DNA of 64,000 nt, taken from the NCBI RefSeq assembly GCF_056746865.1, contig NZ_CM163382.1; one strand, given 5' to 3'. Position 1 is the first letter of the stretch. Each line of letters starts with the position of its first letter. This document shows, piece by piece, positions 9,280-38,918 of the stretch. The translations under genes and the position numbers were made by a program. Under the pieces are notes generated by a model that was not told where the DNA came from, searched no databases, and worked only from the letters and a program-made list of their open reading frames with translations.

Positions 9280-10533
9280 ATGCTGGAACAAATGGGCATT
9301 GCCGCAAAGCAAGCCTCGTATAAATTAGCGCAACTCTCCAGCCGCGAAAAAAATCGCGTGCTGGAAAAAATCGCCGATGAACTGGAAGCACAAAGCGAAA
9401 TCATCCTCAACGCTAACGCCCAGGATGTTGCTGACGCGCGTGCCAATGGCCTTAGCGAAGCGATGCTTGACCGTCTGGCACTGACGCCCGCACGGCTGAA
9501 AGGCATTGCCGATGATGTGCGCCAGGTGTGCAACCTCGCCGATCCGGTGGGGCAGGTGATTGATGGTGGCGTACTGGACAGCGGCCTGCGTCTTGAGCGT
9601 CGTCGCGTACCGCTGGGGGTTATTGGCGTGATTTATGAAGCTCGCCCGAACGTGACGGTTGATGTCGCTTCGCTGTGCCTGAAAACCGGTAACGCAGTGA
9701 TCCTGCGTGGTGGCAAAGAAACCTGTCGCACTAACGCTGCAACGGTGGCGGTGATTCAGGACGCCCTGAAATCCTGCGGCTTACCGGCGGGTGCCGTGCA
9801 GGCGATTGATAATCCTGACCGTGCGCTGGTCAGTGAAATGCTGCGTATGGATAAATACATCGACATGCTGATCCCGCGTGGTGGCGCTGGCCTGCATAAA
9901 CTGTGCCGCGAACAGTCGACGATCCCGGTGATCACAGGTGGTATAGGCGTATGCCATATTTACGTTGATGAAAGCGCGGAGATCGCTGAAGCATTAAAAG
10001 TGATCGTCAACGCGAAAACTCAGCGACCGAGCACATGTAATACGGTTGAAACGTTGCTGGTGAATAAAAACATCGCCGATAGTTTCCTGCCCGCATTAAG
10101 CAAACAAATGGCGGAAAGTGGCGTGACGTTACACGCTGATGCAGGTGCACTGGCGCAGTTGCAGACAGGCCCCGCGAAGGTGGTGGCTGTTAAAGCGGAA
10201 GAGTATGACGATGAGTTTCTGTCATTAGATTTGAACGTCAAAATCGTCAGCGATCTTGACGATGCCATCGCCCATATTCGTGAACACGGCACACAACACT
10301 CCGATGCGATCCTGACCCGCGATATGCGCAACGCCCAGCGTTTTGTTAACGAAGTGGATTCGTCCGCTGTTTACGTTAACGCCTCTACGCGTTTTACCGA
10401 CGGCGGTCAGTTTGGACTGGGTGCGGAAGTGGCGGTAAGCACACAAAAACTCCACGCGCGTGGCCCAATGGGGCTGGAAGCACTGACCACTTACAAGTGG
10501 ATCGGCATTGGTGATTACACCATTCGTGCGTAA
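9280..10533 (+). CDS. proA: gamma-glutamyl phosphate reductase
   Basis: 417 aa, recognisable ProA sequence; 11 nt after proB. Confidence 0.96.
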
Positions 10534-10537
10534 ATAA

Positions 10538-10606
10538 AACCGGGTGATGCAAAAGTAGCCATTTGATTCACAAGGCCATTGACGCATCGCCCGGTTAGTT
10601 TTAACC
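10538..10606 (+). terminator. long-range hairpin after proA (13 bp stem with one G-U, about 33 nt loop, then agtttt)
   Basis: aaccgggtgatgc...gcatcgcccggtt inverted repeat; atypical loop size, so weak. Confidence 0.35.
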
Positions 10607-10647
10607 TTGTCCACCGTGATTCACGTTCGTGAACATGTCCTTTCAGG

Positions 10648-10723
10648 GCCGATATAGCTCAGTTGGTAGAGCAGCGCATTCGTAATGCGAAGGTCGGAGG
10701 TTCGACTCCTCTTATCGGCACCA
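10648..10723 (+). tRNA. thrW: tRNA-Thr (anticodon CGT)
   Basis: 76 nt cloverleaf: acceptor GCCGATA/TATCGGC, D-arm GCTC/GAGC, anticodon loop TTCGTAA, T-arm GGAGG/CCTCT, 3' CCA. Confidence 0.95.
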
Positions 10724-10850
10724 TTTAAATCAAGTAGTTACCTCACATTCAATTACACCACATTTTCCTCCTGTGCCGTATTTGTGCCATTGTAACCCTG
10801 GCAATTCATCAAAATACTGTTCTGACATCAGGCAGTGCAGGTGCAGACAT

Positions 10851-11090
10851 TTAAGCCAATTGCTGCCGCCATTCCTTGACGTGGTCAATCAGGGCGCGGA
10901 GCTTTGGTGCAATATTGCGACGCTGTGGGAAATACAGATAGAAGCCCGGAAATTGTGGAAGAAAGTCATCAAGCAGCGATACAAGCTTACCGCTTTCAAT
11001 ATATGGCCTGAAAGTTTCCTGAGTGGCAATTGTTATGCCTGCGCCGGCAAGAGCCAGCCTCAACATCAGACGCAGATCATTCTGCTAATC
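10851..11090 (-). pseudogene. 3' remnant of a LysR-family regulator gene
   Basis: 71 aa ORF resembling only the C-terminal region of the other LysR proteins in this window (GKL..L..F.P.FPGFYLY); in-frame stop upstream, no N-terminal HTH. Confidence 0.5.
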
Positions 11091-11165
11091 CCACCGATGC
11101 TTCGGTCTGGAGTGGTAAATTAATATTGGACACAGTTTTATTTTCTCTCTTTTTCGAGGGCTATA

Positions 11166-11434
11166 TGAACAGGAAGAATACATCCCTAAGCGGTTAATGC
11201 TGGCGTAATCAATAGACCAGCATTAATCACGGATGATTACCAATCAGACAGATATGGTTAAATCGTCGAATTCATAATTAATACTTTTTCTTACGCCGCT
11301 GAACAGCTTGAAAAGGATACATATTTTAAATATCAGTGAAGTGAACAGTTTATTGCCGTTATTAATAGAGATGGAGGAATAAATACGCGTATTCTACTAT
11401 TGCAACAAAAACAACGATGATGATCAGTTTTCAT
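11166..11434 (-). repeat. degenerate paralogous copy of the ykgO-3'-end/terminator and ykgR region (compare 31042-31195 and 31875-31993)
   Basis: two blocks of roughly 80-85 percent identity by eye; contains a remnant of the last ~12 ykgO codons and a frameshifted ykgR-like 33-codon ORF; ykgM and most of ykgO are missing. Confidence 0.6.
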
Positions 11435-11641
11435 AATGAAGTAACCTGACAGATATAAAAATGTTGATTGAGGCTCAATGCCCGGATGAAGGTTGTCGAG
11501 GGAGCCAGGTGGTTTTTTCTTTTGGGTGATCTCCATTGCTGGATAGTCCCCTCTTTCTCGCTCAAAGCAGACCCTGGAATTGAACGCAGAGGGACTACCT
11601 GACACAATTTTGCACAGTGAAGAGTCGGTCGTTATTAACGT

Positions 11642-12526
11642 TCAGATTTTCAATGTATCAATGACCATCCGCAGGGCGGGGGAGACGTTGCGATGAGGGT
11701 AATAGAGAAACAATCCCTCCATTCGCAGGCTGTAACGCTGCAACACCCTGATAAGCTTACCGTGTTCTAAATCATCCGCGACCAGTTCAACAGGAACATA
11801 GGCCAATCCGAGGCCCAGCCGGGCTGCTTCTGCTTCCATATAGCTGTCGGATAAGGCCCATTGCCCTTCAGGGCGATGAGTGATTTTTTTATCATCCTGA
11901 TTGAGTTCCCACTGGTATACGCTGCCGTCGGCAAACTGATAGGCGATACAGGGATGCGCCTTTAAATCCGCCGGGGTTTGCGGAAAACCATAGCGACGAA
12001 AATGTTCCGGAGTCCCCACAATTGCCATCTCCATATCGGGCGTGATGCGTACCGCGACCATACCCTGGCCGACTTCAGGCCCCAGGCGGACACCTGCATC
12101 GAATCTTTCCTCGATGATATCGACGAACCGGCTCTCATTTATCAGTTCAAGCCGGATATCAGGATATCGCTGTTTAAATACCGCCAGCTTTGGCAGCAGG
12201 CATTTATCAATCGCGTGCTGGCTGGCATTGATACGCACCGTGCCGGAGGGCGTCTCTCGATAGTGCGCCAGCGTGGCAAGCCCAAGATCTAACATTTCAA
12301 ATCCAGATGCCGTCTTCTGGTAGAGCTGCTCGCCTGCTTGTGTCAGCGACAGTTTACGCGTGGTGCGCACTAGCAGCTGGACGCCGAGCCTTTCTTCAAG
12401 CTCGCGAACAGAACGGCTGACTCCTGACTGAGCAAGACCCAGCCGCTGAGCCGCTGCGGTAAAGCTGCCTTCCCGCACCACCTGCATAAACAGGTACAGC
12501 TCGTTGTAGTTCTCCCTTTTCGCCAT
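11642..12526 (-). CDS. LysR-family transcriptional regulator
   Basis: 294 aa; N-terminal HTH (FTAAAQRLGLAQSGVSRSVRELE) and LysR substrate-binding domain; divergent from the hydrolase gene. Confidence 0.88.
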   Translation of the reverse strand: MAKRENYNELYLFMQVVREGSFTAAAQRLGLAQSGVSRSVRELEERLGVQLLVRTTRKLSLTQAGEQLYQKTASGFEMLDLGLATLAHYRETPSGTVRINASQHAIDKCLLPKLAVFKQRYPDIRLELINESRFVDIIEERFDAGVRLGPEVGQGMVAVRITPDMEMAIVGTPEHFRRYGFPQTPADLKAHPCIAYQFADGSVYQWELNQDDKKITHRPEGQWALSDSYMEAEAARLGLGLAYVPVELVADDLEHGKLIRVLQRYSLRMEGLFLYYPHRNVSPALRMVIDTLKI

Positions 12527-12712
12527 TGAAACATCCCCCCTTCATGCCGGCAATCTCCGCATTAATTTATAACAATATGGTATTAATCTTAGCATTAATC
12601 GCCCCCTAATCAGCACTAATTCTGCTCATTATAATGACCCCATCAAAGCAAAGCACCGCAGCGTTTTCCGTCGGAAACCTGTATCTCTCTATTGTTTTTT
12701 ATGGGGATTTTT

Positions 12713-13849
12713 ATGAAAGCCTTCACCCGAACGCTAAAAACCGCGATGCCGACCATGCTGCTTTTCGCATCATTAAGTGGAGTCACGACAATGAGTTATG
12801 CTGATTCAACCAATCCTAATGCCCCTGTGTCCATGACAGATAAATGGGATAAAACGTTCGCCGAGAGCCAGAAAGTCGATCACCGTAAAGTCTCGTTCCC
12901 GAACCGATATGGCATCACCTTAGTGGGCGATCTTTACCTGCCTAAAGACCGTGGCGATCGCAAGCTGGCGGCGATTGCGGTCAGTGGGCCATTTGGCGCG
13001 GTGAAAGAGCAATCCAGCGGCTTGTATGCGCAGACGCTGGCGGAACGAGGGTTTGTTACCCTGGCGTTCGATCCTTCTTACACCGGGGAAAGCGGCGGCT
13101 ATCCGCGAAACGTCGCCTCACCGGATATCAACACTGAAGATTTCAGCGCGGCGGTGGATTTCTTAGGGCTGCAAAAAGAGGTAGATCGCAACCGTATCGG
13201 GCTGCTCGGTATTTGTGGCTGGGGCGGCATGGCGCTGAACGACGTGGCGATGGATACCCGCGTTAAAGCGGTAGCTACCAGCGTGATGTATGACATGAGC
13301 CGGGCGATGGGTCATGGTGTGGGGGATGGCAAAGACCGTTATTCTACCGCCGACCGTCGTGCCGTTCTGCAATATCTGAATGAACAGCGCTGGCAGGATG
13401 CGCAGAGCGGAACGTTCGCTCACGGTGGTCATGATATTAATGTCGATAGCAACGGCAAGGTCAGTGCGGGCGAGCGCATTCTGCCAGAAACGCTGCCGGC
13501 AAATCCTCATCCGGTACTGAAAGAGTTCTTTGACTACTATCGCATGCCGCGCGGCTTCCACGAACGTTCCGTTAACTCTACCGGGGCGTGGACGGCAACG
13601 ATGCCGCTGTCATTTATGAATATGCCGCTGTTGAGCTACGCCAGTGAAATCACCATTCCGACGCTGATTGTGACCGGTGAGAAAGCACATTCACGCTATT
13701 TTGCTGAAGATGCTTACAAGGCGGTTGGCAGTAAAGACAAAGAGTTGGTGGTGGTACCAGGGGCAAATCACGTGGACCTGTACGATAACGTGGCCGGAAA
13801 AATACCTTTCGCGAAGTTCGAACAATTTTTCCAGACCAAACTGAAATAA
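12713..13849 (+). CDS. secreted alpha/beta-fold hydrolase, dienelactone-hydrolase-like (Cys in the nucleophile elbow)
   Basis: 378 aa from ATG 12713; signal-peptide-like N-terminus; GICGWGG elbow; paralog of the 33884-34804 product. Confidence 0.8.
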   Translation: MKAFTRTLKTAMPTMLLFASLSGVTTMSYADSTNPNAPVSMTDKWDKTFAESQKVDHRKVSFPNRYGITLVGDLYLPKDRGDRKLAAIAVSGPFGAVKEQSSGLYAQTLAERGFVTLAFDPSYTGESGGYPRNVASPDINTEDFSAAVDFLGLQKEVDRNRIGLLGICGWGGMALNDVAMDTRVKAVATSVMYDMSRAMGHGVGDGKDRYSTADRRAVLQYLNEQRWQDAQSGTFAHGGHDINVDSNGKVSAGERILPETLPANPHPVLKEFFDYYRMPRGFHERSVNSTGAWTATMPLSFMNMPLLSYASEITIPTLIVTGEKAHSRYFAEDAYKAVGSKDKELVVVPGANHVDLYDNVAGKIPFAKFEQFFQTKLK

Positions 13850-13870
13850 AACCTCTCCTGAATTGATGCA

Positions 13871-13900
13871 AAGCCACCGGCCATAGGCTGGTGGCTTTTA
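13871..13900 (+). terminator. terminator-like hairpin after the hydrolase gene
   Basis: aagccaccgg...ctggtggctt followed by ttat. Confidence 0.45.
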
Positions 13901-13924
13901 TCCTGATCTTTGTGAAATTTCACT

Positions 13925-15118
13925 ATGTCGACACTAAGCCAAACACTATCACCTCATCATCAGCGCGCATACTGGGGCGGTATTTTTGCCATGACCCTGT
14001 GCGTGTTTGTGCTGATTGCTTCTGAATTTATGCCCGTCAGCCTGCTCACGCCGATTACCCGCGATTTAGGCGTGACGGAGGGGCTTGCAGGGCAGGGGAT
14101 TGCTATCTCCGGCGCGCAGGCGGTTCTGACCAGCCTGACGCTTTCAACGCTAGCTGGAAAGATGAATCGTAAGTTCCTGCTGCTGGGGATGACGGTTCTG
14201 ATGGCCGTATCGGGGCTTATTATTGCGCTGGCTTCCAGTTATCTGATGTATATGGTCGGTCGTGCGATGATTGGTGTGGCTATTGGCGGATTCTGGTCGA
14301 TGTCAGCGGCAACGGCGATTCGTCTGGTGCCGCAGCATCAGGTCACGCGTGCGCTGGCAATTTTCAACGCCGGTAATGCGCTGGCGACGGTCGTGGCCGC
14401 ACCGCTGGGAAGCTATCTGGGGGCTACGGTCGGATGGCGAGGCGCTTTCTTGTGCCTGGTGCCCATCGCGGTTGTCGCCTTTATCTGGCAGTGCATCAGC
14501 CTGCCAAGCATGGATGCGAATAAAAGCCACACTTCATGTGGCGCGGTATTCCGCTTATTTAGCCGCCGCATGGTTGTGGTCGGCATGATAGCTTGTGGCC
14601 TGTTTTTCATGGGGCAGTTTGCGCTATTCACCTATGTGCGCCCGTTTCTGGAGTCGGTGACACGGGTTAATTCCTTAGGCTTGTCGTCGATTTTGCTGAT
14701 TATCGGCGTGGCCGGTTTTATTGGCACGCTGGTTGTTTCGGCATTTCTCAACAGAAAATTCTACCCCACGCTGATGGCCATACCCGGACTGATGGCCGTC
14801 ATTGCCATCGGTCTGATGCTTACCGGGCATCACGTCTGGACGGTCTCGCTGCTGTTAGGACTCTGGGGCATGCTGGCCACCGCCGCGCCAACCGGATGGT
14901 GGACATGGATTGCGCGTACGTTGCCTGACAACGCCGAAGCTGGAGGCGGGCTCATGGTCGCGGTGATTCAGCTCGCCATCGCCCTTGGATCAACGGCAGG
15001 AGGCATTGTGTTTGACCGCCTTGGCTGGCAGAGCACGTTTGCTATGAGTAGCGTGCTGCTCCTTTGCGCTGGCGTACTGACCTTTGTTACCGCACGCCAG
15101 AAGGCCGGTGCGCTTTAG
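13925..15118 (+). CDS. MFS-family transporter
   Basis: 397 aa, multiple hydrophobic helices, MFS-like pattern. Confidence 0.85.
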   Translation: MSTLSQTLSPHHQRAYWGGIFAMTLCVFVLIASEFMPVSLLTPITRDLGVTEGLAGQGIAISGAQAVLTSLTLSTLAGKMNRKFLLLGMTVLMAVSGLIIALASSYLMYMVGRAMIGVAIGGFWSMSAATAIRLVPQHQVTRALAIFNAGNALATVVAAPLGSYLGATVGWRGAFLCLVPIAVVAFIWQCISLPSMDANKSHTSCGAVFRLFSRRMVVVGMIACGLFFMGQFALFTYVRPFLESVTRVNSLGLSSILLIIGVAGFIGTLVVSAFLNRKFYPTLMAIPGLMAVIAIGLMLTGHHVWTVSLLLGLWGMLATAAPTGWWTWIARTLPDNAEAGGGLMVAVIQLAIALGSTAGGIVFDRLGWQSTFAMSSVLLLCAGVLTFVTARQKAGAL

Positions 15119-15162
15119 TCCGGCGAGGGCGCGCGTTGCTGAATAAGTTACACAAGGCGATG

Positions 15163-15192
15163 AGCGCCCACTATGGGTTGGGCGCTCTTTTA
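15163..15192 (+). terminator. terminator hairpin between convergent MFS gene and paoD
   Basis: 8 bp stem agcgccca/tgggcgct followed by cttttaaa. Confidence 0.5.
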
Positions 15193-15298
15193 AACGATTT
15201 AGGTGATTTTCTAAAACGGCTACTGCAGATTTTTTCTCTTAATTTATGGGTATTTCCCCCGGAGGCGAGAAAGCGCTCTCCACGCCCGGCCGCAAGGA

Positions 15299-16255
15299 TC
15301 AGGACGACGGGGGCAGGCATGAATCCTCATCCTGATGGAGACGTACAGAGGCGACTTCTGCCAGCACGGAGAGTGCCAGAGTATGCGCATCCCGGGCTTT
15401 GGGGAATATCCCGACGGGTGCCCGGATTTGCGCTGTCTCCTCCCTGGACCATCCCAGCTCGTGGAGCTTTTGCAGACGTAAAGTGTGGGTTCGATAGCTG
15501 CCCAATGCGCCGAGATAAAAGGGTTTTGCTTCTCGCGCGGCCTGCAACACTGGCAGCTCCCGGTTGAGATCATGGCACAGCAAAATGACCGCCGTATCGG
15601 TATCGATCTGAGCGCTGGCTGAGGCCGGAAAAAGATCGAAGATATGGCTGTCATAGCCTGTGGCTGCTGCAAGACTCGCGGTTGCCTGCGCCTCAAGAGA
15701 ACGTCCGTAAATCATCAGACTGACGCATGGCCTGAACCCCACCTCAAAGCCATTGAGATTCCAGCCCGTCCGGGTTTGCGTGGGCAGGCACACCAGCGAT
15801 TGAGCTTGCGGATCGTAGCGCAGACCCGCCGGTTTTCTCTGTTCCAGGCGGTTCAGCACGGCGAGCAGAGGCTGTGCCGAGCGTAGTTTATGGAGCGTCA
15901 GCGTGATCCCACCGCCGCAGGGCAGAACGATGTCAAACCACGGCGAACCTTCGCCATAGCAAATTTCGCGATCGCGGCCTGAGCCCATCACCTCCAGCGC
16001 TTCAAAAGCGGCAGCGGCCTCCACGCAGCCGCCAGAGACAAAACCGCAGTAACGGCCATCTTCGCGCACCACCATCTGCGCCCCGAGCGGGCGCGCCGCG
16101 CCGCCGCGTATCTCCACCAGCGTCACCAGCACCGCTCCTTTACCGGACATTAGCGCCTCTACGGCGAAGCGCAGAATGGTCCGGTGGTCATCGGTGAGAA
16201 ACGCCTGCTCTGGCTTATGCCAGTGCTCGTCTTTGTCAAAAAGCGAGTATGACAT
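15299..16255 (-). CDS. paoD: molybdenum cofactor insertion chaperone (XdhC family) PaoD
   Basis: 318 aa; last gene of the pao cluster. Confidence 0.88.
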   Translation of the reverse strand: MSYSLFDKDEHWHKPEQAFLTDDHRTILRFAVEALMSGKGAVLVTLVEIRGGAARPLGAQMVVREDGRYCGFVSGGCVEAAAAFEALEVMGSGRDREICYGEGSPWFDIVLPCGGGITLTLHKLRSAQPLLAVLNRLEQRKPAGLRYDPQAQSLVCLPTQTRTGWNLNGFEVGFRPCVSLMIYGRSLEAQATASLAAATGYDSHIFDLFPASASAQIDTDTAVILLCHDLNRELPVLQAAREAKPFYLGALGSYRTHTLRLQKLHELGWSREETAQIRAPVGIFPKARDAHTLALSVLAEVASVRLHQDEDSCLPPSS

Positions 16256-18463: not shown

Positions 18464-19416
18464 GCCTGTGCCCTCGCTTCAGCCAGTACGGAGGCAAGCG
18501 TTCGCTTCGCCAACAGGAGTTTAAAGGTGTTTTCAGCGGTGGGATGGGCGCTGGCGAACAGCGCGTCATACACGGCCTGCGCCCCCTGGGATAGCTGAGC
18601 ATTCGCAGCCTCAATGCGCCAGGGCTTATGTGCTACTCCGCCCAGCGCGACGCGCCCGCTGCCGTCAGGCTGAATAATCGCCGCGACCGATACCAGGGCA
18701 AAGGCGTAGGAGGCGCGATCGCGCACCTTACGGTAAATATGTTTTCCGCCGAGCGGCGGAGGTAACGTCACCGCAACGATAAGCTCACCGGGAAGCAGGG
18801 CGGTTTCAATGTGCGGCGTTTTCCCCGGTGGGTGATAAAAATCAGCCAGTGTGATACTGCGAGTCTTTCCCTCCGGCGTGATGGTTTCCACCACCGCATC
18901 CAGCAACCGCATTGCGACCGCCATATCGCTCGGATGGGTGGCAATGCAGGCTTCGCTTACGCCTACCACCGCGTGCTGACGGCTAAAGCCTTCAAGTGCC
19001 GCGCAGCCGCTCCCGGGCAGGCGCTTATTGCAGGGCTGATTGGTGTCGTAAAAATAGGGGCAGCGCGTGCGCTGGAGCAGATTACCTGCGGTGGTTGCCT
19101 GATTACGTAACTGACCAGACGCGCCAGCGAGCAGGGCGCGGGAGAGTACCGCGTAATCACGACGCACGCGCTCGTGAGCCGCCAGGTCGGTGTTCCGTAC
19201 CAGTGCGCCGATGCGCAGCCCACCCGCGTCGGTCACTTCAATCTTATCGAGCCCGAGGCCGTTCACATCGATAAGGTGGGTGGGCGTTTCAATTTCCAGC
19301 TTCATCAGGTCCAGCAGATTGGTCCCGCCCGCGATAAATTTTGCGCCGGGTACGCGCTGAGCGCTAAGTGCCGCCTCGGCCGGGGTGTTCACTCGTTCAT
19401 AGGTAAACGCCTTCAT
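18460..19416 (-). CDS. paoB: aldehyde oxidoreductase FAD-binding subunit PaoB
   Basis: 318 aa; overlaps the paoA stop. Confidence 0.92.
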
Positions 19417-19903
19417 GATTTTATCTCCCCCGCAGCGTCTTCAATGGCGGCAAGGATGTTAGCGTATGCTCCACAGCGACAGATGTTGCCGCTCATACGT
19501 TCACGGATCTCATCGGCAGTTCTTTCTGGAGGGGAAACCAAATCGACCGTGACGTGACTGGGAATGCCGTCCTGAATCTCTTTTAGCACCGCTACTGATG
19601 AGCAAATTTGCCCGGAGGTGCAGTAGCCGCACTGGAAGCCATCATGCTTGATAAAGGCCGCCTGCATGGGGTGAAGATTCTCTGGTGAACCCAGGCCTTC
19701 AATGGTGGTGATCTCGGCCCCCTGATGCATGACTGCAAGCGTCAGGCAGGCATTAAGCCTGCGACCATTGACCAGCACGGTACAGGCTCCGCACTGTCCG
19801 TGATCGCAACCTTTCTTGGTACCGAACAGATGCAGATTTTCACGCAAAGCGTCCAGTAGCGTGGTTCGGGTATCCACCTCAAGCTGCTCGGTTTTGCCGT
19901 TCA

Positions 19904-21162
<1,259 letters not shown>

Positions 21163-21769
21163 CACCTTAAGTGTCAGGGGCATTATCTCTGGCGCGGGTG
21201 TAGCTGCCGGAACGCTTGCTGCAAGCGTAGAATGAGGATAAACCACGGCGGTCGCCGCCGTTGCGGCGCTGACTTTAATCAGATCGCGACGGGTCAAACT
21301 AAAATCGTGCGGCTCGTGCTTCCCAACCCGATTATCTTCGGGGTATTCGCCTTGGTTGCTCATACCAGGCCTCCGGTATTCTAAAGGGGAAAATAAGAGA
21401 GCGTTGCGAGAGTGCTGATGCTTTTTTAAACGTTAAGCATAGTCGGTGAGAGCAGGAGGATTATTCTTAAAACGCGAATGCAGCTATGAGCCCGGCTAAT
21501 TAATTCATATTCGCCGATGACGGGAGCTCGTTTATTGCTTTAGTTGTGCGATGCAAAAACCGATAAGGAAACCTGTGATTGTCAGCTCTGCATCACCCTA
21601 CAAATCTTTGTCACTTCTAACATAAAAATAGGGAGAAATGATGGTGCTTATATTCATTGGCGATTAGGAAACTATCTTGTTATACAAAACAATACAGTTC
21701 TTTACATTTGTCTTGTTTTATGAATACTCCTGAAGAGGTGTATAACATAATGGTACAAGCAGGGTAGAT

Positions 21770-30747: not shown

Positions 30748-31153
30748 TCAGTCATCTGTGCGCGTTACTCTAACTGGCACTCGAACGTCGGCGATGGGGT
30801 TACCGGTGGATCAGGCCGTTCCTGTGGCGTAAACGTTTTTATGTCAGTACCAACAGATTTACCACATTTATCATCTTAACCGTTTGAGTGTAAATGCAGG
30901 CTGCGTCGCAAAGGGAGGAAACTGAGTGGCGTGTTCAGTCTAAAAGAGAGTTGATGCCAGCATACAGGGCGCACCTGGTCAACAAGTCAACATTAATATA
31001 ATGGAATATTCGGAGAGAAACGTCAGGCAGTTGACCTTAAATGAACAGGAAGATACATCCCCAGGAAAATTAATGCTGGTGTAATAAATACACCAACATT
31101 AATCCGGTCTGATTATTAATCAGACAAATATCGTTAATTCGTCGAATTTTGAA

Positions 31154-31294
31154 TCAACGTTTTTTCTTACGACCCTGAACGGCCTTAAAACGTGGATTAG
31201 ATTTACAAATCACATATAGCCGTCCTTTTCGCTTCACAATCTGACAGTCTGGATGGCGTTCTTTTGCGGTACGCAGAGAGTTAAGGACTTTCAT
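31154..31294 (-). CDS. ykgO: 50S ribosomal protein L36 paralog (zinc-independent type)
   Basis: 46 aa [46 protein letters not shown] read directly; absent from the ORF track (<60 aa); start overlaps ykgM stop (ATGA). Confidence 0.85.
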
Positions 31295-31586: not shown

Positions 31587-31921
31587 CGTAAAGATACATG
31601 CTCATCCGGATCATTTCAACACCCAATCCCTGTGACCATTTGTGGTATGTGGAATTTCCTCAACGGGGAAGTCTGGCATTGTTAACAGCCATTGGCTGAC
31701 GCTCCCATAAACGCCTGGATGAGTGATTGATGATGGTTTCGCTGAGAGTATGGATTTTTCGAGAATGGAGGTTATCTCCACTTTACTGGCCGATGATTTA
31801 TCGCAGTATGATTGATTACCTGACAGCGTGTATTCCTCTCCCACGGATATAATAATTACTTACAAAAAGGGAGAGGATGCATATTTTAAATATCACTGAA
31901 GTGAACAGTTTATTGCCGTTA

Positions 31922-32023
31922 TTAATAGAAATGGAAAAATAAATAGGCGTATTCTACAATTGCGACAAAAACAACGATATTAATCAGTTTATGACTGATT
32001 TGTTGTACTTTATTCTCTTTCAT
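31922..32023 (-). CDS. ykgR: small membrane protein YkgR (33 aa)
   Basis: MKENKVQQISHKLINIVVFVAIVEYAYLFFHFY read from the minus strand; hydrophobic core; not in the ORF track. Confidence 0.6.
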   Translation of the reverse strand: MKENKVQQISHKLINIVVFVAIVEYAYLFFHFY

Positions 32024-32496: not shown

Positions 32497-33639
32497 TTAA
32501 TCCATTAACGGAAACCAGCCAGTTCCTTTCGATGCCTGAATTTGATCCCATAGTTTATCCGGAATGGTTAATTCAGGAACAAGTTGTGGATTAAGGGTTG
32601 TTTGAATTTCATGGCTTCTACCTGATTCAGCTAAAGTCACCCATTCTGGATTTATCACCAGCCCTTTACCGATCGCAACAAGTGGCAGGCCAGTGGAAAT
32701 TGCTTCTTGAGCCTGAGACGGTGTGCGTATTTTACCTGCAGCGATTACCGGCACTCTGCCTGCAATATGATTTAAAATCAATTCAATAGTTCGGGGGCCA
32801 TTTGGCGACTCAACAGGGTAGCTATCGTTAATACTGACCAGCGAGGTATGTATATACGAAATACCGGATGCAATGAGCCGATCAAGGAGTTTATAAGTAT
32901 CCTCTATCCGCAGCCCCCCTGTTGCAGATTCTTCAGGAGATATTCTGTAACCGATGGCAAAGGGCTTTGTCGCATATTCATAGACTACATTTTTTACTTC
33001 CTGTAATACGGCCAGCGGGAATCGCATACGTCTTTCGAGATCTCCTCCCCATCGGTCATTACGCTGGTTAAATAGAGGGGAGAAGAAATTCTGTAGAAGG
33101 AATCCGTGCGCACCATGAAGTTCAATGCCATCAAAACCTGCTTTAATCGCCCTTTTTGTGACATCTCCGAATGCTCTAATGGTTTCCTGAATTTCGTTTT
33201 CAGTCATTTCCCTGCTTTGTACCACTCTCTTCATAAAGTCACCAGATTTTACGCTTGATGCGCTGGCACTAATAACATCGTTATTTGGTACAAGCTCCGG
33301 GATGGCTTTATTACCGGCGTGGAAAATCTGCAAAATAGCCGGAGCACCGCCACTTTTGGCTGCCGCTGCTAACTTTTCAAGGCTGTTAATGAAACGGTCG
33401 TCATACGCGGCAAATTCATGAGTAAACCCAATGCCGCTTGGCGTGACATAGGTACATCCTGTTATTACTAAACCAACATTTTGTGAGCGACGTTTATAAA
33501 ATTCGAGTTCTTGCTCAGAGATGGTTCCATCAGGATTCGCTGACCAGGTCGTCATAGGAGCCATAACGATACGATTACGTAGCTTTATTTTTTCTGTCAG
33601 CATAAAAGGAGAAAACAATGATGGGTGTTTATTTGTCAT
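32497..33639 (-). CDS. NADH:flavin oxidoreductase, Old Yellow Enzyme family
   Basis: 380 aa; OYE-like TIM-barrel signature (RIVMAPM, LQIFHAGN, GFDGIELHGAHGFLL); GAGG RBS. Confidence 0.85.
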   Translation of the reverse strand: MTNKHPSLFSPFMLTEKIKLRNRIVMAPMTTWSANPDGTISEQELEFYKRRSQNVGLVITGCTYVTPSGIGFTHEFAAYDDRFINSLEKLAAAAKSGGAPAILQIFHAGNKAIPELVPNNDVISASASSVKSGDFMKRVVQSREMTENEIQETIRAFGDVTKRAIKAGFDGIELHGAHGFLLQNFFSPLFNQRNDRWGGDLERRMRFPLAVLQEVKNVVYEYATKPFAIGYRISPEESATGGLRIEDTYKLLDRLIASGISYIHTSLVSINDSYPVESPNGPRTIELILNHIAGRVPVIAAGKIRTPSQAQEAISTGLPLVAIGKGLVINPEWVTLAESGRSHEIQTTLNPQLVPELTIPDKLWDQIQASKGTGWFPLMD

Positions 33640-33883
33640 AACAATACCTCAAATGTTTATCTGATTTTGATGCGTATGTTTTAACTGGTTAGTTGTTGCC
33701 AGCTTTGGAACCAAGGTTTATGGCTTTATTTATAATTCCTTCAAAGGGTTTCTAATAATCTTAATAATTGAGTTGCTGCTTTTTTGTTTCTTTAATGAAA
33801 TTTCTTTTTGAGTAATTTTATTATTGTTGTGTAGTCAATAAAGGATAAATGTCAGGGAGATAAGGAATCTCCCTGTAAGATTA

Positions 33884-34804
33884 TTACAAATGTGTTTTAT
33901 AAAAAGGAATTAATTTATCGAGTGCCTGTTTCACAGGTTCTGGCTTATCATACAGGTCGTAATGTGAATAACCTTCAACCACGACCAGCTCTTTATGTTT
34001 TGAGGCAGCGCGGCCAATAATTTCGCAGCCGTCACGGTAGGCACCAAATGCGCCCACTCTATCGCCCACCACAACCATTATTGGTTGAGTTAACAGGACT
34101 TCTGCAAGATGAAATGCATCCCAACCCACGGCAACAGTCTGATGTGAGAATAGCGAACGATTTACCCCATTAGGTGCACAGCCTCGTGGCGAACGATAAT
34201 ATTCTGTGGCTTCAAAAAGGTCTATTTCTGTTAATCCCGCTTCAAGAGCTGCATCCGGAGAAGAGGGGAGTAAATCATCTACGCGAAGTTTTGCGCCGTT
34301 AGCTTCGTCTGTTCTTTGTTGCGCCATTGCTTCGAGTGCTCCGATAGGATTAAACGCTGTAAATCCCTCACGCATAAGACGCCCGTAGTTTGCACCCGTG
34401 ACAGTACCAATAGCTTTAATTCGACGTTCTGTCATTGCGGCATTAATGGCATATCCACCTCCACCACAAATACCCAGTACACCAATACGCCCGGCATCAA
34501 CGTAAGGTAAGGTGGTAAGGTAATCAACGACAATGCTGAAGTCTTTTACTCGCATTGTTGGATCTTCCAGATAACGCGGTTCTCCACCGCTGCTTCCCTG
34601 AAAACTGGCATCAAAAGCAATGACGATAAAGCCAGCTTTTGCCAGGGCGGCACCATACACACTACCCGATGTTTGTTCTTTGCAGCTTCCAATTGGATGG
34701 GCGCTGATAATGGCAGGATACTTTTTTTCACTATTAAAATCGTCAGGGAAATAGATATCAGCAGCTATATCCCAGTAAGTATGTTTTATCGAAACAGTTT
34801 TCAT
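33884..34804 (-). CDS. alpha/beta-fold hydrolase, dienelactone-hydrolase-like (Cys nucleophile elbow GICGGGG)
   Basis: 306 aa; no signal peptide; paralog of the 12713-13849 product. Confidence 0.82.
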   Translation of the reverse strand: MKTVSIKHTYWDIAADIYFPDDFNSEKKYPAIISAHPIGSCKEQTSGSVYGAALAKAGFIVIAFDASFQGSSGGEPRYLEDPTMRVKDFSIVVDYLTTLPYVDAGRIGVLGICGGGGYAINAAMTERRIKAIGTVTGANYGRLMREGFTAFNPIGALEAMAQQRTDEANGAKLRVDDLLPSSPDAALEAGLTEIDLFEATEYYRSPRGCAPNGVNRSLFSHQTVAVGWDAFHLAEVLLTQPIMVVVGDRVGAFGAYRDGCEIIGRAASKHKELVVVEGYSHYDLYDKPEPVKQALDKLIPFYKTHL

Positions 34805-34960
34805 TTCAAGCTCCGGGGAATTGCCTAAACAGATTTAAATATCATTTCTATTATCCGCAACTGGCATTCGTGTTCATGTCGAGAACGGCGTAATAGTATG
34901 ACTTGTATTGGTTATCATCAATGGTCTAATATCTATCACAGTGTTAAGTTAAGGTTTACA

Positions 34961-35887
34961 ATGATGAAAATAGAGCCTTCAATTTTGCCTTCTCTTGCCT
35001 GGTTTGCGCTGATTGTTCGTGCCGGCAGTTTTTCCAGAGCCGCTTCTGAAATGGGTATTACGCGGGCCGCATTGTCCCAGAATTTAAAATCTCTTGAGGA
35101 ACGTCTTAACACCAAGCTGATATACCGTACGACCCGCAATATGTCGCTTACTGAGGAAGGACAGCGTCTGTATGAAGTGCTGGTGTCGGCTTTGGGGCAA
35201 ATTGATGATGCTTTGAAAGATGTTGGTGATACCCAACTTGAACCTACAGGCCTGTTGAGAATAAATTCCTCCCGTGTTGCAGCACGGATGCTTGTTGAGC
35301 CTCATATTGGCGAGTTTCTTACTCGTTACCCCAAAACAAAGATAGAACTCATTATGGATGACGGTTTATCTAACATTATTGCGGACGGCTGTGATGTGGG
35401 CATACGTCTTGAGCAAGGACTGGATGAGCATATGACTGCCATTCCTGTTTCTCCGCTTATTAAACTGGTTACTGTGGCATCGCCAGATTATTTAAAAGAG
35501 CACGGTATTCCTGAAACGCCTCAGGAACTGAGTAACCATAATTGCCTTCGGTTGCGGCATAAAAGTAGTGGTGCACTCTCTGCATGGGAGTTTTCTAATG
35601 TTGCGGGGGGTAATGAAGAGTTCGAAATAGAGGTTTCAGGTAAGTATATTTCTAATGATGACGAAAGCATGATACGAATGGCGCTGAATGGAACGGGTAT
35701 CATTCAACATCTGGATTTTGCAATCGCTGAACATATCAATGCGGGCAAGTTACAGCCGATTCTTGAGGATTGGGCTGTTTCATTTCCTGGATTTTATATT
35801 TATGTTTCATCACGGGTGAGAATGCCCTCTAAAGTTCGTGCTTTTATTGATTTTATGGTGGAGAAAAGAGTAAAACTCGAAAATTGA
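34961..35887 (+). CDS. LysR-family transcriptional regulator
   Basis: about 309 aa from MMKIEPS...; HTH FSRAASEMGITRAALSQNLKSLE; divergent from the hydrolase. Confidence 0.82.
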   Translation: MMKIEPSILPSLAWFALIVRAGSFSRAASEMGITRAALSQNLKSLEERLNTKLIYRTTRNMSLTEEGQRLYEVLVSALGQIDDALKDVGDTQLEPTGLLRINSSRVAARMLVEPHIGEFLTRYPKTKIELIMDDGLSNIIADGCDVGIRLEQGLDEHMTAIPVSPLIKLVTVASPDYLKEHGIPETPQELSNHNCLRLRHKSSGALSAWEFSNVAGGNEEFEIEVSGKYISNDDESMIRMALNGTGIIQHLDFAIAEHINAGKLQPILEDWAVSFPGFYIYVSSRVRMPSKVRAFIDFMVEKRVKLEN

Positions 35888-36042
35888 TGATATGTGTAAT
35901 TGATGGTTGCTCTGGGCGAATATCGGTAAGAGGAATAACGTAATCATTAGGACGCGTTTACATAATAAACTTTCTGATAATTAATACTTATTTTCTATAC
36001 GGCCATAATATCAATTATCATTATCACCGGTAATGTGGTTAA

Positions 36043-38918
<2,876 letters not shown>

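Follow-up and report, generated by a model that had tools for sequence, protein, structure and literature searches.

A LysR-hydrolase-MFS gene cassette of Escherichia coli encodes a PA2218-type alpha/beta-hydrolase with a predicted signal peptide

Introduction

The closest described relatives of the enzyme considered here are PA2218 of Pseudomonas aeruginosa and YcjY, both of which have solved structures (2HDW and 5XB6, respectively). The family is widespread, already known and annotated, and our literature search (YcjY, PA2218, opdE/PA2219, GrgF, 5XB6 and 2HDW) yielded no functional characterisation of its members. This includes the very widely distributed 2HDW branch, whose members carry a lone invariant Cys and, to judge from their N-termini, are usually exported. 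Its GXCXG box has led to the proposal that YcjY is a candidate cPHB polymerase; most cPHB polymerase activity is located in the periplasm (PMC3709699).

Here we describe a PA2218-type gene of E. coli that lies between a LysR-type regulator gene and an MFS transporter gene. The original prediction had presented this locus as the second of two LysR/hydrolase modules, and had suggested a possible link to the neighbouring pao genes. The value of our analysis is mostly clarification: the two modules are assigned to separate subfamilies, a plausible-looking functional link with PaoABC is removed, and two RefSeq gene models in this strain are corrected (hydrolase start 12791, MFS start 13991).

Results

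The window, the whole 64,000-nucleotide stretch of contig NZ_CM163382.1 (RefSeq assembly GCF_056746865.1), is E. coli chromosome. Annotated E. coli chromosomes, for example that of strain 118UI, match the sequence at 100% identity. The features discussed below, including two genes used for comparison, are as follows.

11642-12526, minus strand: LysR-type regulator (LysR1), 294 aa, with HTH_1 and LysR_substrate domains, divergent to the hydrolase H1
12567-12599, no strand given: conserved intergenic block TTATAACAATATGGTATTAATCTTAGCATTAAT, candidate LysR binding site
12630-12635, plus strand: -10 hexamer TATAAT, candidate promoter of the hydrolase-MFS unit
12703-12707, plus strand: Shine-Dalgarno sequence GGGGA, 5 nt 5' of the ATG at 12713
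12713-12802, plus strand: predicted Sec-type signal peptide of H1, residues 1-30, cleavage between SYA and D
12713-13849, plus strand: H1, alpha/beta-hydrolase precursor of the PA2218 family, 378 aa, with Cys168, Glu323 and His353
13925-15118, plus strand: 12-TM MFS transporter, 397 aa, with an MFS_1 match
33884-34804, minus strand: H2, the YcjY-like paralogue used as comparison, 306 aa, with Cys113, cytoplasmic and without a signal peptide
34961-35887, plus strand: LysR regulator divergent to H2, comparison gene

The three ORFs lie at the positions first given for them and, as had been claimed, each hydrolase is divergent to a LysR gene and an MFS gene follows H1. In Kluyvera the LysR-hydrolase-MFS order is kept, with 91.6% DNA identity over 11557-15135. 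The same arrangement occurs in Enterobacter, Yersinia, Dickeya, Psychrobacter, Vogesella and Luteimonas, and the LysR gene is syntenic with the hydrolase gene in Kluyvera, Enterobacter, Yersinia, Dickeya, Psychrobacter and Vogesella. The cassette is accessory in E. coli, where the hydrolase-MFS pair is present in 912 of 5426 complete genomes (H2 in 2115). PA2218-type enzymes with at least 51% identity are spread across Proteobacteria, Bacteroidota, Firmicutes, Melainabacteria, Elusimicrobia and Verrucomicrobia. The gene families neighbouring the orthologues are LysR (17), MFS (13), Hexapep (10), Cupin_2 (10), Cyclophil_like2 (9) and AKR (5); an exported cyclophilin-like-2 protein recurs beside PA2218-type enzymes. 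An Rfam scan of 10400-15500 returned tRNA-Thr only, with no riboswitch or leader. Overall, we think it probable that the three genes form a self-contained, horizontally mobile cassette spanning 11557-15135.

The two hydrolases had been described as homologous, with a shared GICGxGG elbow in which Cys takes the place of Ser, and both statements hold. The BLASTP alignment gives 32% identity over 323 columns (E=5e-35), and the elbows read GICGWGG in H1 (Cys168, codon 13214-13216) and GICGGGG in H2 (Cys113, codon 34466-34468). In HMMER alignments, the Cys of H2 aligns with the Ser of G-x-S-x-G in PET46 (8B4U), MHETase 9PJB and DcsB (7D78). H1 matches PA2218 (2HDW) at 8e-125 and YcjY at 2e-43, while the corresponding order is reversed for H2 (YcjY 4e-67, PA2218 2e-44). 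On these matches H1 is assigned as a PA2218 orthologue and H2 is placed nearer YcjY, in different subfamilies that diverged anciently. LysR1 shares 29% identity with the LysR paired with H2 and 42% with another LysR at 36112. Duplication of the whole module, as implied by the term "second module", was rejected on these LysR identities together with the subfamily assignment.

H1 matches the profiles PF12740 (33.1 bits, cut-off 28) and PF12146 (30.1 bits, cut-off 27), and Foldseek returned a probability of 1.00 to many alpha/beta-hydrolases, with 2HDW and 5XB6 as the top matches. In the AF2 model, strand 157-167 leads into C168 and helix 169-180. Profiles, fold and this strand-turn-helix elbow place H1 in the alpha/beta-hydrolase fold superfamily, and E-values of 7.9e-125 (2HDW) and 1.6e-43 (5XB6) place it in the PA2218/YcjY family, an ordinary family that is already annotated and uncharacterised. 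H1 had no match to PF01738 (DLH) at E<=0.001 and falls outside that family by this measure; PF01738 is matched by H2 (25.0 bits, cut-off 21) and by several H1 orthologues. Assignment of H1 as a UilS quorum-quenching AHL lactonase (NF047920) was rejected, at 63.6 bits against a cut-off of 400 and with a match confined to the N-terminal half.

Across 81 orthologues from many phyla, C168, G169, H353, D355 and A325-H326-S327 are invariant, as are the elbow motif G-[IV]-C-x-x-x-G and the histidine-loop motif H-x-D-L-Y-D. The Nu+2 residue is aromatic in all 81; Trp or Phe at this position is unusual for a nucleophile elbow. Of the residues of a Cys-His-Asp triad, the Cys and His (His353, codon 13769-13771) are present and invariant. 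In H1 the invariant Ala325 takes the place that is canonical for the acid, at G+3 past strand beta7. Judging from conservation, the acid is probably Glu323 (codon 13679-13681), which sits at G+1 and is E in 77, D in three and A in one of the 81 orthologues; YcjY has Ser here, and one Helicobacter-like relative has Lys. D355, itself invariant, and D358 were also considered. The Cys of the elbow is the only one in the entire H1 protein, and in 58 of the 81 orthologues the mature part contains just one; such a pattern fits a thiol left free in an oxidising compartment. We infer hydrolysis by H1 from its fold and conserved residues, since the literature searched gave no published activity for any member of the PA2218/YcjY family.

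The N-terminus of H1 had been described as signal-peptide-like, and our analysis agrees; H2 lacks such a segment. As expected for a Sec precursor, the sequence MKAFTRTLKTAMPTMLLFASLSGVTTMSYA, followed by DSTN, divides into the n-, h- and c-regions of such a signal (MKAFTRTLK, TAMPTMLLFASLSGVTTM, and SYA before the D). The Kyte-Doolittle maximum over nine residues is 2.0 in H1 versus 1.2 in H2, and AF2 pLDDT is below 50 for H1 residues 1-32. This architecture is kept in 15 Enterobacterales sequences (genera-level), in which indels are in-frame and of three codons. Export signals were recognised in 71 of the 81 orthologues (42 Sec-like, 15 Tat-like and 14 lipobox-like), in classes assigned by a home-made heuristic and not by SignalP or TatP. 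Judged by these features, the signal peptide of H1 is real, and its cleavage is predicted after SYA30.

LysR1 has the properties of a LysR-type regulator, namely both domains (HTH_1 1.4e-23, LysR_substrate 4.7e-35), a divergent layout with a 186-bp gap to H1, and an intergenic T-N11-A dyad. Among NCBIfam models it scores best with YafC (192 bits, under the cut-off of 470). The dyad (T-N11-A / ATA..TAT) lies in block 12567-12599, which is near-invariant in seven Enterobacterales intergenic regions with diverging flanks, and which we regard as a candidate LysR binding site. The hexamer at 12630-12635 is a perfect TATAAT with a poor -35, and TA[TC]AAT is found there in all seven aligned species, suggesting a candidate activator-dependent promoter for the hydrolase-MFS unit. 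The promoter/terminator scan was uninformative: it listed only weak hairpins, and its consensus search missed this conserved -10 because the -35 is weak. One weak terminator-like hairpin lies at 13879-13896, between the H1 and MFS genes, and counts against assuming that the two are co-transcribed.

The MFS protein matches MFS_1 at 2.7e-37 (129 bits, cut-off 33.4). Its identification as the purine ribonucleoside efflux pump NepI (NCBIfam NF007578) was rejected at 289.8 bits, under the curated cut-off of 584, and the two are related only. The NepI alignment begins at MFS residue 13, for which reason we favour a start at 13925 over the RefSeq start at 13991, which clips TM1. The next matches are the sugar transporter model PRK03545 and the Cmx/CmrA chloramphenicol efflux family. 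Among the best matches, those with a named function are efflux pumps (NepI, Cmx/CmrA), and the protein is closest to DHA1-type exporters.

Discussion

Our preferred account, which we consider reasonably probable as a whole, is a LysR-induced cassette in which a Sec-exported Cys168 hydrolase and an MFS pump would act together in detoxification or processing. The LysR protein would bind the conserved dyad in the divergent region in response to a ligand, and would then activate the promoter with the perfect -10 and weak -35 to give expression of the hydrolase and the transporter. The 378-aa H1 precursor would leave the cytoplasm via Sec and lose its signal peptide after SYA30. The mature periplasmic enzyme would work as a Cys168/His353 alpha/beta-hydrolase, with Glu323 probably as the acid, and would form a thioester acyl-enzyme in the manner of dienelactone hydrolase. 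Its substrate may be a small ester, lactone or thioester, and the invariant Arg and His residues hint that it is possibly anionic. Transport of this substrate or of the product across the inner membrane, most likely outward, would fall to the DHA1-like MFS protein, and the likeliest role would be inducible detoxification or processing of an exogenous compound.

Two alternatives concern the setting in which H1 works. The RefSeq model WP_001586705.1 (PGAP) starts at 12791 and omits the signal peptide, which would make H1 a cytoplasmic enzyme of 352 aa behind an untranslated leader. A GGAG-like sequence 8 nt 5' of the ATG at 12791 and some database entries of 352 aa agree with this model, but the 378-aa form is called in most genera, and the 26 codons upstream of 12791 hold frame through the 3-codon indels. 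These codons are conserved across Enterobacterales and their substitutions follow a coding-type pattern (53 at third positions versus 25 and 25), and the true leader upstream of 12713 has no such excess. The purine-rich Shine-Dalgarno sequence ahead of 12713 is conserved, at the same distance from the ATG, in Kluyvera, Yersinia, Dickeya and Enterobacter, and in distant orthologues the corresponding segment is an unrelated signal of the Sec, Tat or lipobox type. We therefore regard a start at 12791 as very improbable. The original prediction suggested instead that H1 provides a periplasmic version of the chemistry of H2, possibly linked to PaoABC; in such a partnership H1 might, for example, release aldehydes or acids for Pao to act on. 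The genes are physically adjacent in E. coli, and both products would be periplasmic by their signals (the predicted signal peptide of H1, and a Tat signal annotated in paoA). However, the MFS gene and paoD lie 3' end to 3' end, in convergent orientation, as separate transcription units, paoA is split by ISEc31 in this strain, and the Kluyvera-syntenic segment stops at 15135, ahead of paoD. The co-occurrence check also went against a link: against the 912 E. coli genomes with the hydrolase-MFS pair stand 3598 with paoC, no pao gene was found beside the cassette in Dickeya or Yersinia, and a PaoC-like gene lies within three genes of the hydrolase in only one of 80 other species and is absent from 150 immediate neighbours of hydrolase orthologues. 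The cassette is independent of pao and the adjacency is a coincidence; a partnership with PaoABC is not supported, is already largely refuted, and retains hardly any probability.

Two further alternatives concern what H1 and its transporter do. H1 could be an acyltransferase or polymerase whose G-x-C-x-G box acts as in PHA synthases or fungal polyketide-offloading hydrolases, for example in periplasmic short-chain PHB conjugation. The proposal for YcjY and the mostly periplasmic cPHB polymerase activity (PMC3709699) point in this direction, as does the presence of the transacylating DcsB and GrgF among the closest characterised structures by fold. These two share only 18-20% identity with H1, though, and no periplasmic CoA-thioester donors are known. 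Most E. coli genomes are without the cassette, so it cannot explain a general E. coli activity, and the neighbourhoods resemble detoxification clusters (AKR, cupin, FMN reductase, LysR, MFS) and not polymer metabolism. We consider this alternative improbable. The cassette could also be an uptake or catabolic unit, in which the periplasmic hydrolase cleaves an ester or conjugate and the nutrient so released is imported by the MFS protein. Such a unit would follow the same cassette logic as our preferred account; LysR regulators often activate catabolic operons, and cytoplasmic enzymes (AKR, cupin, acetyltransferase) adjoin orthologues in other phyla. The named-function MFS matches are nevertheless exporters and not symporters, and the E. 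coli cassette has no downstream catabolic enzyme, which leaves import rather unlikely, if worth keeping in mind.

More broadly, the PA2218-type enzymes can be seen as an exported single-Cys family that uses three predicted export routes (Sec, Tat and lipoprotein). It is conceivable, although we would not expect it, that they represent an unrecognised but widespread periplasmic activity, either a thiol-dependent lactonase or esterase acting on a common host-, plant- or microbe-derived electrophile, or non-hydrolytic chemistry. The E. coli cassette, which occurs in O157:H7, O55:H7 and UPEC strains, is a convenient and genetically tractable entry point to the substrate of the family.

Comparison with known systems

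Among the closest characterised structures to H1 by fold and N-terminal-half sequence are DcsB (7D78/7D79), GrgF (6LZH) and the archaeal PET46 esterase (8B4U). All three share only 18-21% identity with H1 and belong to other biological contexts, and in the alignments the elbow position is occupied by Ser in DcsB and PET46. Dienelactone hydrolase (PF01738, Cys-His-Asp) resembles H1 in its elbow Cys and in the His on the loop past the last strand. H1 differs from it in having no PF01738 match, a probable acid off the canonical position, predicted export, and a much larger lid, for which about 120 residues are inserted between beta6 and beta7.

YcjY (5XB6) and H2 share with H1 the elbow Cys (GICAGAG and GICGGGG, respectively) and the H-x-DLYD histidine loop. 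Unlike H1, they are cytoplasmic, lack a signal peptide, are shorter at the N-terminus by about 75 residues, and carry a small residue in place of the Trp/Phe at Nu+2; their identity to H1 is about 32-33%. The partner of H2 is an OYE flavin reductase and not an MFS pump. PA2218 of P. aeruginosa, deposited as a structural-genomics "hypothetical protein" (2HDW), comes from another host and gives a structure but no mechanism. It is nonetheless like H1 at the level of an orthologue in sequence (E=7.9e-125, and 58% identity in the Foldseek alignment), in fold (Foldseek TM 0.90), and in its GICGWGG elbow and AHS and HVDLYD motifs. The adjacent gene, PA2219 (opdE), encodes an inner-membrane transporter, which would match the pairing of hydrolase and transporter seen in the E. 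coli cassette.

Genomic setting of the cassette

The window derives from the Escherichia coli chromosome: positions 11300-15300 match many complete genomes at 100% identity, and positions 1-50000 are colinear with E. coli strain 118UI (99.994% identity). The LysR, alpha/beta-hydrolase (H1) and MFS genes of the cassette lie where the original prediction placed them, and their families were confirmed by Pfam.

Features in and around the cassette
proB-proA, start of the gene order, before tRNA-Thr
10648-10723, tRNA-Thr, after proB-proA
between tRNA-Thr and LysR, AT-rich gap of 0.9 kb with gene fragments
11642-12526 (-), LysR regulator
12567-12599, intergenic block TTATAACAATATGGTATTAATCTTAGCATTAAT with a T-N11-A dyad, nearly invariant in seven genera
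12630-12635, conserved -10 TATAAT with a poor -35, downstream of the dyad block
12703-12707, conserved Shine-Dalgarno GGGGA, 5 nt before ATG 12713
12713-13849 (+), alpha/beta-hydrolase H1
13925-15118 (+), MFS transporter
beyond the MFS gene (-), paoD-C-B-A
19941-21154, ISEc31 (IS3-family), inside paoA (region 19413-21363)

The gap (10724-11641, 42% GC) holds gene debris: the C-terminal piece of a LysR (10851-11081), which shares 40-42% identity with the LysRs at 34961 and 36112, a stretch (11162-11314) 78.6% identical to 31038-31190, and a ykgR fragment (11314-11430) 90.6% identical in DNA to the intact locus at 31874-31990. Taken together, this debris looks like a partial copy of the ykgL-ykgR region that has degenerated.

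Start codon and export of H1

RefSeq (strain 118UI) starts H1 at 12791 (352 aa, MSYADSTN...), and the signal would then be lost; database homologues are mostly called at 378 aa. Several lines favour ATG 12713 and bear out the predicted signal-peptide-like N-terminus. Residues 1-30 follow the pattern M-x-x-F-T-[RK]-K-L-T..P-A-M-L-L-C-A-S-L-S-G-V-T-T-M-S-Y-A|D in 15 Enterobacterales sequences, two of which carry in-frame 3-residue deletions. In a comparison of five genera, the 26 codons before 12791 carry 25, 25 and 53 substitutions at codon positions 1, 2 and 3, and the same comparison found no codon-position bias in the 78 nt upstream of 12713. The Shine-Dalgarno sequence is conserved, and residues 1-32 are unstructured in the AF2 model. 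The RefSeq start thus looks too far downstream, deleting a conserved signal peptide.

A genome scan recovered H1 orthologues (51-97% identical) from 80 further species of several phyla. By a simple heuristic, the N-terminal extensions of the 81 sequences, H1 included, are Sec-like (42), twin-arginine-like (15, e.g. SRRSFIQGVALAGSAALLAGGAG), lipobox-like (14) or absent (10, mostly Clostridia-type genomes), and they are unrelated to one another. Export is thus long established and general in the subfamily. Twin-arginine-type signals (e.g. RRDLLKLTGAGVAALGA) occur in alpha-, beta- and some gamma-proteobacterial orthologues (hydrolase N-termini of L016, L023, L027, L030, L040, L049, L059, L061, L071, L074, L080, L081 and L088), Sec-type signals in Enterobacterales and lipobox-like ones in Bacteroidota; the export route has changed repeatedly while the mature domain stayed conserved.

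Catalytic residues

In the AF2 model (mean pLDDT 78), Cys168 sits between strand 157-167 and helix 169-180, a classical elbow, and His353 follows the last strand. C168, G169, H353, D355, L356, Y357 and A325-H326-S327 are invariant in the 81 sequences. The position after next from the nucleophile (Nu+2), where a G-x-Nu-x-G motif usually has a small Gly, is Gly in the second hydrolase of the window (H2, 33884-34804, -) and in YcjY; at residue 170 (codon 13220-13222) of the PA2218 subfamily it is always aromatic (W 47, F 33, Y 1), which is an unusual elbow. The site where the acid canonically lies, G+3 after strand 317-322, is occupied by the invariant Ala325, so that Glu323 at G+1 (E 77, D 3, A 1) is the likely catalytic acid; we infer this role, since its equivalent is Ser in YcjY and Lys in one Helicobacter-like relative. 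Invariant R132, R183, R197, R226, H283 and H326 hint at an anionic substrate. Cys168 is the only cysteine of H1 (H2 has four), and the mature part has one in 58/81 orthologues, which would be sensible for a periplasmic enzyme with a free catalytic thiol.

Relationship to the second hydrolase

H1 and H2 are homologous, as predicted (32% identity over 323 aligned columns, E=5e-35), and share the Cys elbow (G-I-C-G-W-G-G and G-I-C-G-G-G-G). In HMMER comparisons with solved structures, the H2 cysteine aligns with the Ser of 'GLSMGG' in PET46 (8B4U) and MHETase 9PJB and of 'GMSFGG' in DcsB (7D78), and therefore occupies the nucleophile position. H1 is orthologue-like to Pseudomonas aeruginosa PA2218 (PDB 2HDW, E=7.9e-125), with E. 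coli YcjY (5XB6) more distant (1.6e-43), whereas H2 shows the opposite pattern (YcjY 4.1e-67, PA2218 2.1e-44). The LysR beside H1 is 29% identical to that beside H2 and 42% to the next LysR, at 36112. These opposite affinities and the low LysR identity rule out a recent duplication. The description of a second module therefore holds for homology and for placement divergent to LysR, but not for recent common origin; LysR genes are most often arranged divergently, which makes the parallel generic.

H2 begins right at the first core strand, without a hydrophobic N-terminus, and occurs in 2115/5426 complete E. coli genomes. Its cluster (32497-38903: OYE-type flavin oxidoreductase, H2, two LysR genes, two aldo/keto reductases) looks like one for electrophile or carbonyl detoxification.

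Synteny and the pao genes

LysR-hydrolase-MFS forms a syntenic block, matched in Kluyvera at 91.6% DNA identity limited to 11557-15135 and in Enterobacter at about 75%; the pattern recurs in Psychrobacter, Vogesella and Luteimonas, among others. In Yersinia and Dickeya these three genes are joined by a cyclophilin-like-2 gene (PF18050), which the E. coli cassette lacks. This gene (L002 7234-7743; L003 8601-9104; L005 5576-5998) accompanies the hydrolase in about 17/80 species, in Yersinia and Dickeya, and on a contig from a rumen metagenome; its product carries a signal- or lipobox-like sequence at its own N-terminus. The poor -35 of the conserved -10 would fit a promoter that depends on an activator.

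The MFS protein best matches the NepI model, although its 289.8 bits fall short of the cut-off of 584; next come a sugar transporter model and the chloramphenicol efflux family Cmx/CmrA. In the 397-aa form the alignment to NepI starts as early as residue 13, in favour of initiation at 13925; the RefSeq start (strain 118UI, 13991) drops about 22 alignable N-terminal residues and looks too far downstream.

Five observations speak against the proposed link to periplasmic PaoABC. The MFS gene and paoD are convergent, tail to tail; the cassette boundary falls before paoD; and paoA is split by ISEc31, leaving a Tat-signal N-terminal fragment (21163-21363), so that this strain probably lacks a working PaoABC. 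Of 5426 complete E. coli genomes, 912 have the hydrolase-MFS pair and 3598 have paoC, and within three genes of the hydrolase in 80 other species we counted LysR in 22, MFS in 17, cyclophilin-like-2 in 17 and a PaoC-like gene in one. The adjacency in E. coli is best explained by the cassette's place in the variable region beside the thrW tRNA gene.

Among 150 immediate neighbours, a scan with Pfam counted LysR (17), MFS_1 (13), hexapeptide acetyltransferase (10), Cupin_2 (10), Cyclophil_like2 (9), AKR (5), AraC (5), FMN_red (4), Flavodoxin_2 (4) and CMD (3); the 25 commonest families include no molybdoenzyme. Some Bacteroidota, Melainabacteria and other genomes (L017, L020, L021, L024, L034, L035, L067, L072) have a gene of about 186-192 aa directly upstream of the hydrolase on the same strand; the Hexapep and Cupin_2 counts are pooled over all 150 neighbours.

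Probable role and nearest known systems

H1 is most likely an inducible, exported, thiol-dependent alpha/beta-hydrolase paired with an MFS pump, in a gene context that resembles xenobiotic- or electrophile-handling clusters. Its substrate may be a small ester, lactone or thioester. A minor alternative is a cPHB polymerase role, once proposed for YcjY from its GXCXG box (PMC3709699); the literature searched held no functional study of PA2218 or YcjY. The original prediction is confirmed as an observation, and its interpretation is partly supported: it stands for homology and signal peptide but not for duplication or the Pao link.

The cassette is ordinary, accessory and already annotated, and the hydrolase family is structurally known; what remains of interest is how broad the family is, its use of three export routes and the lone invariant cysteine. 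Foldseek ranked 2HDW and 5XB6 first for H1, followed at 18-23% identity by the Chloroflexus hydrolase 7QJM, the fungal transacylases DcsB and GrgF, and PET46. By analogy with dienelactone hydrolase, Cys-His catalysis could proceed through a thioester intermediate; H1 would work like that enzyme, but is not called one because it falls outside PF01738.
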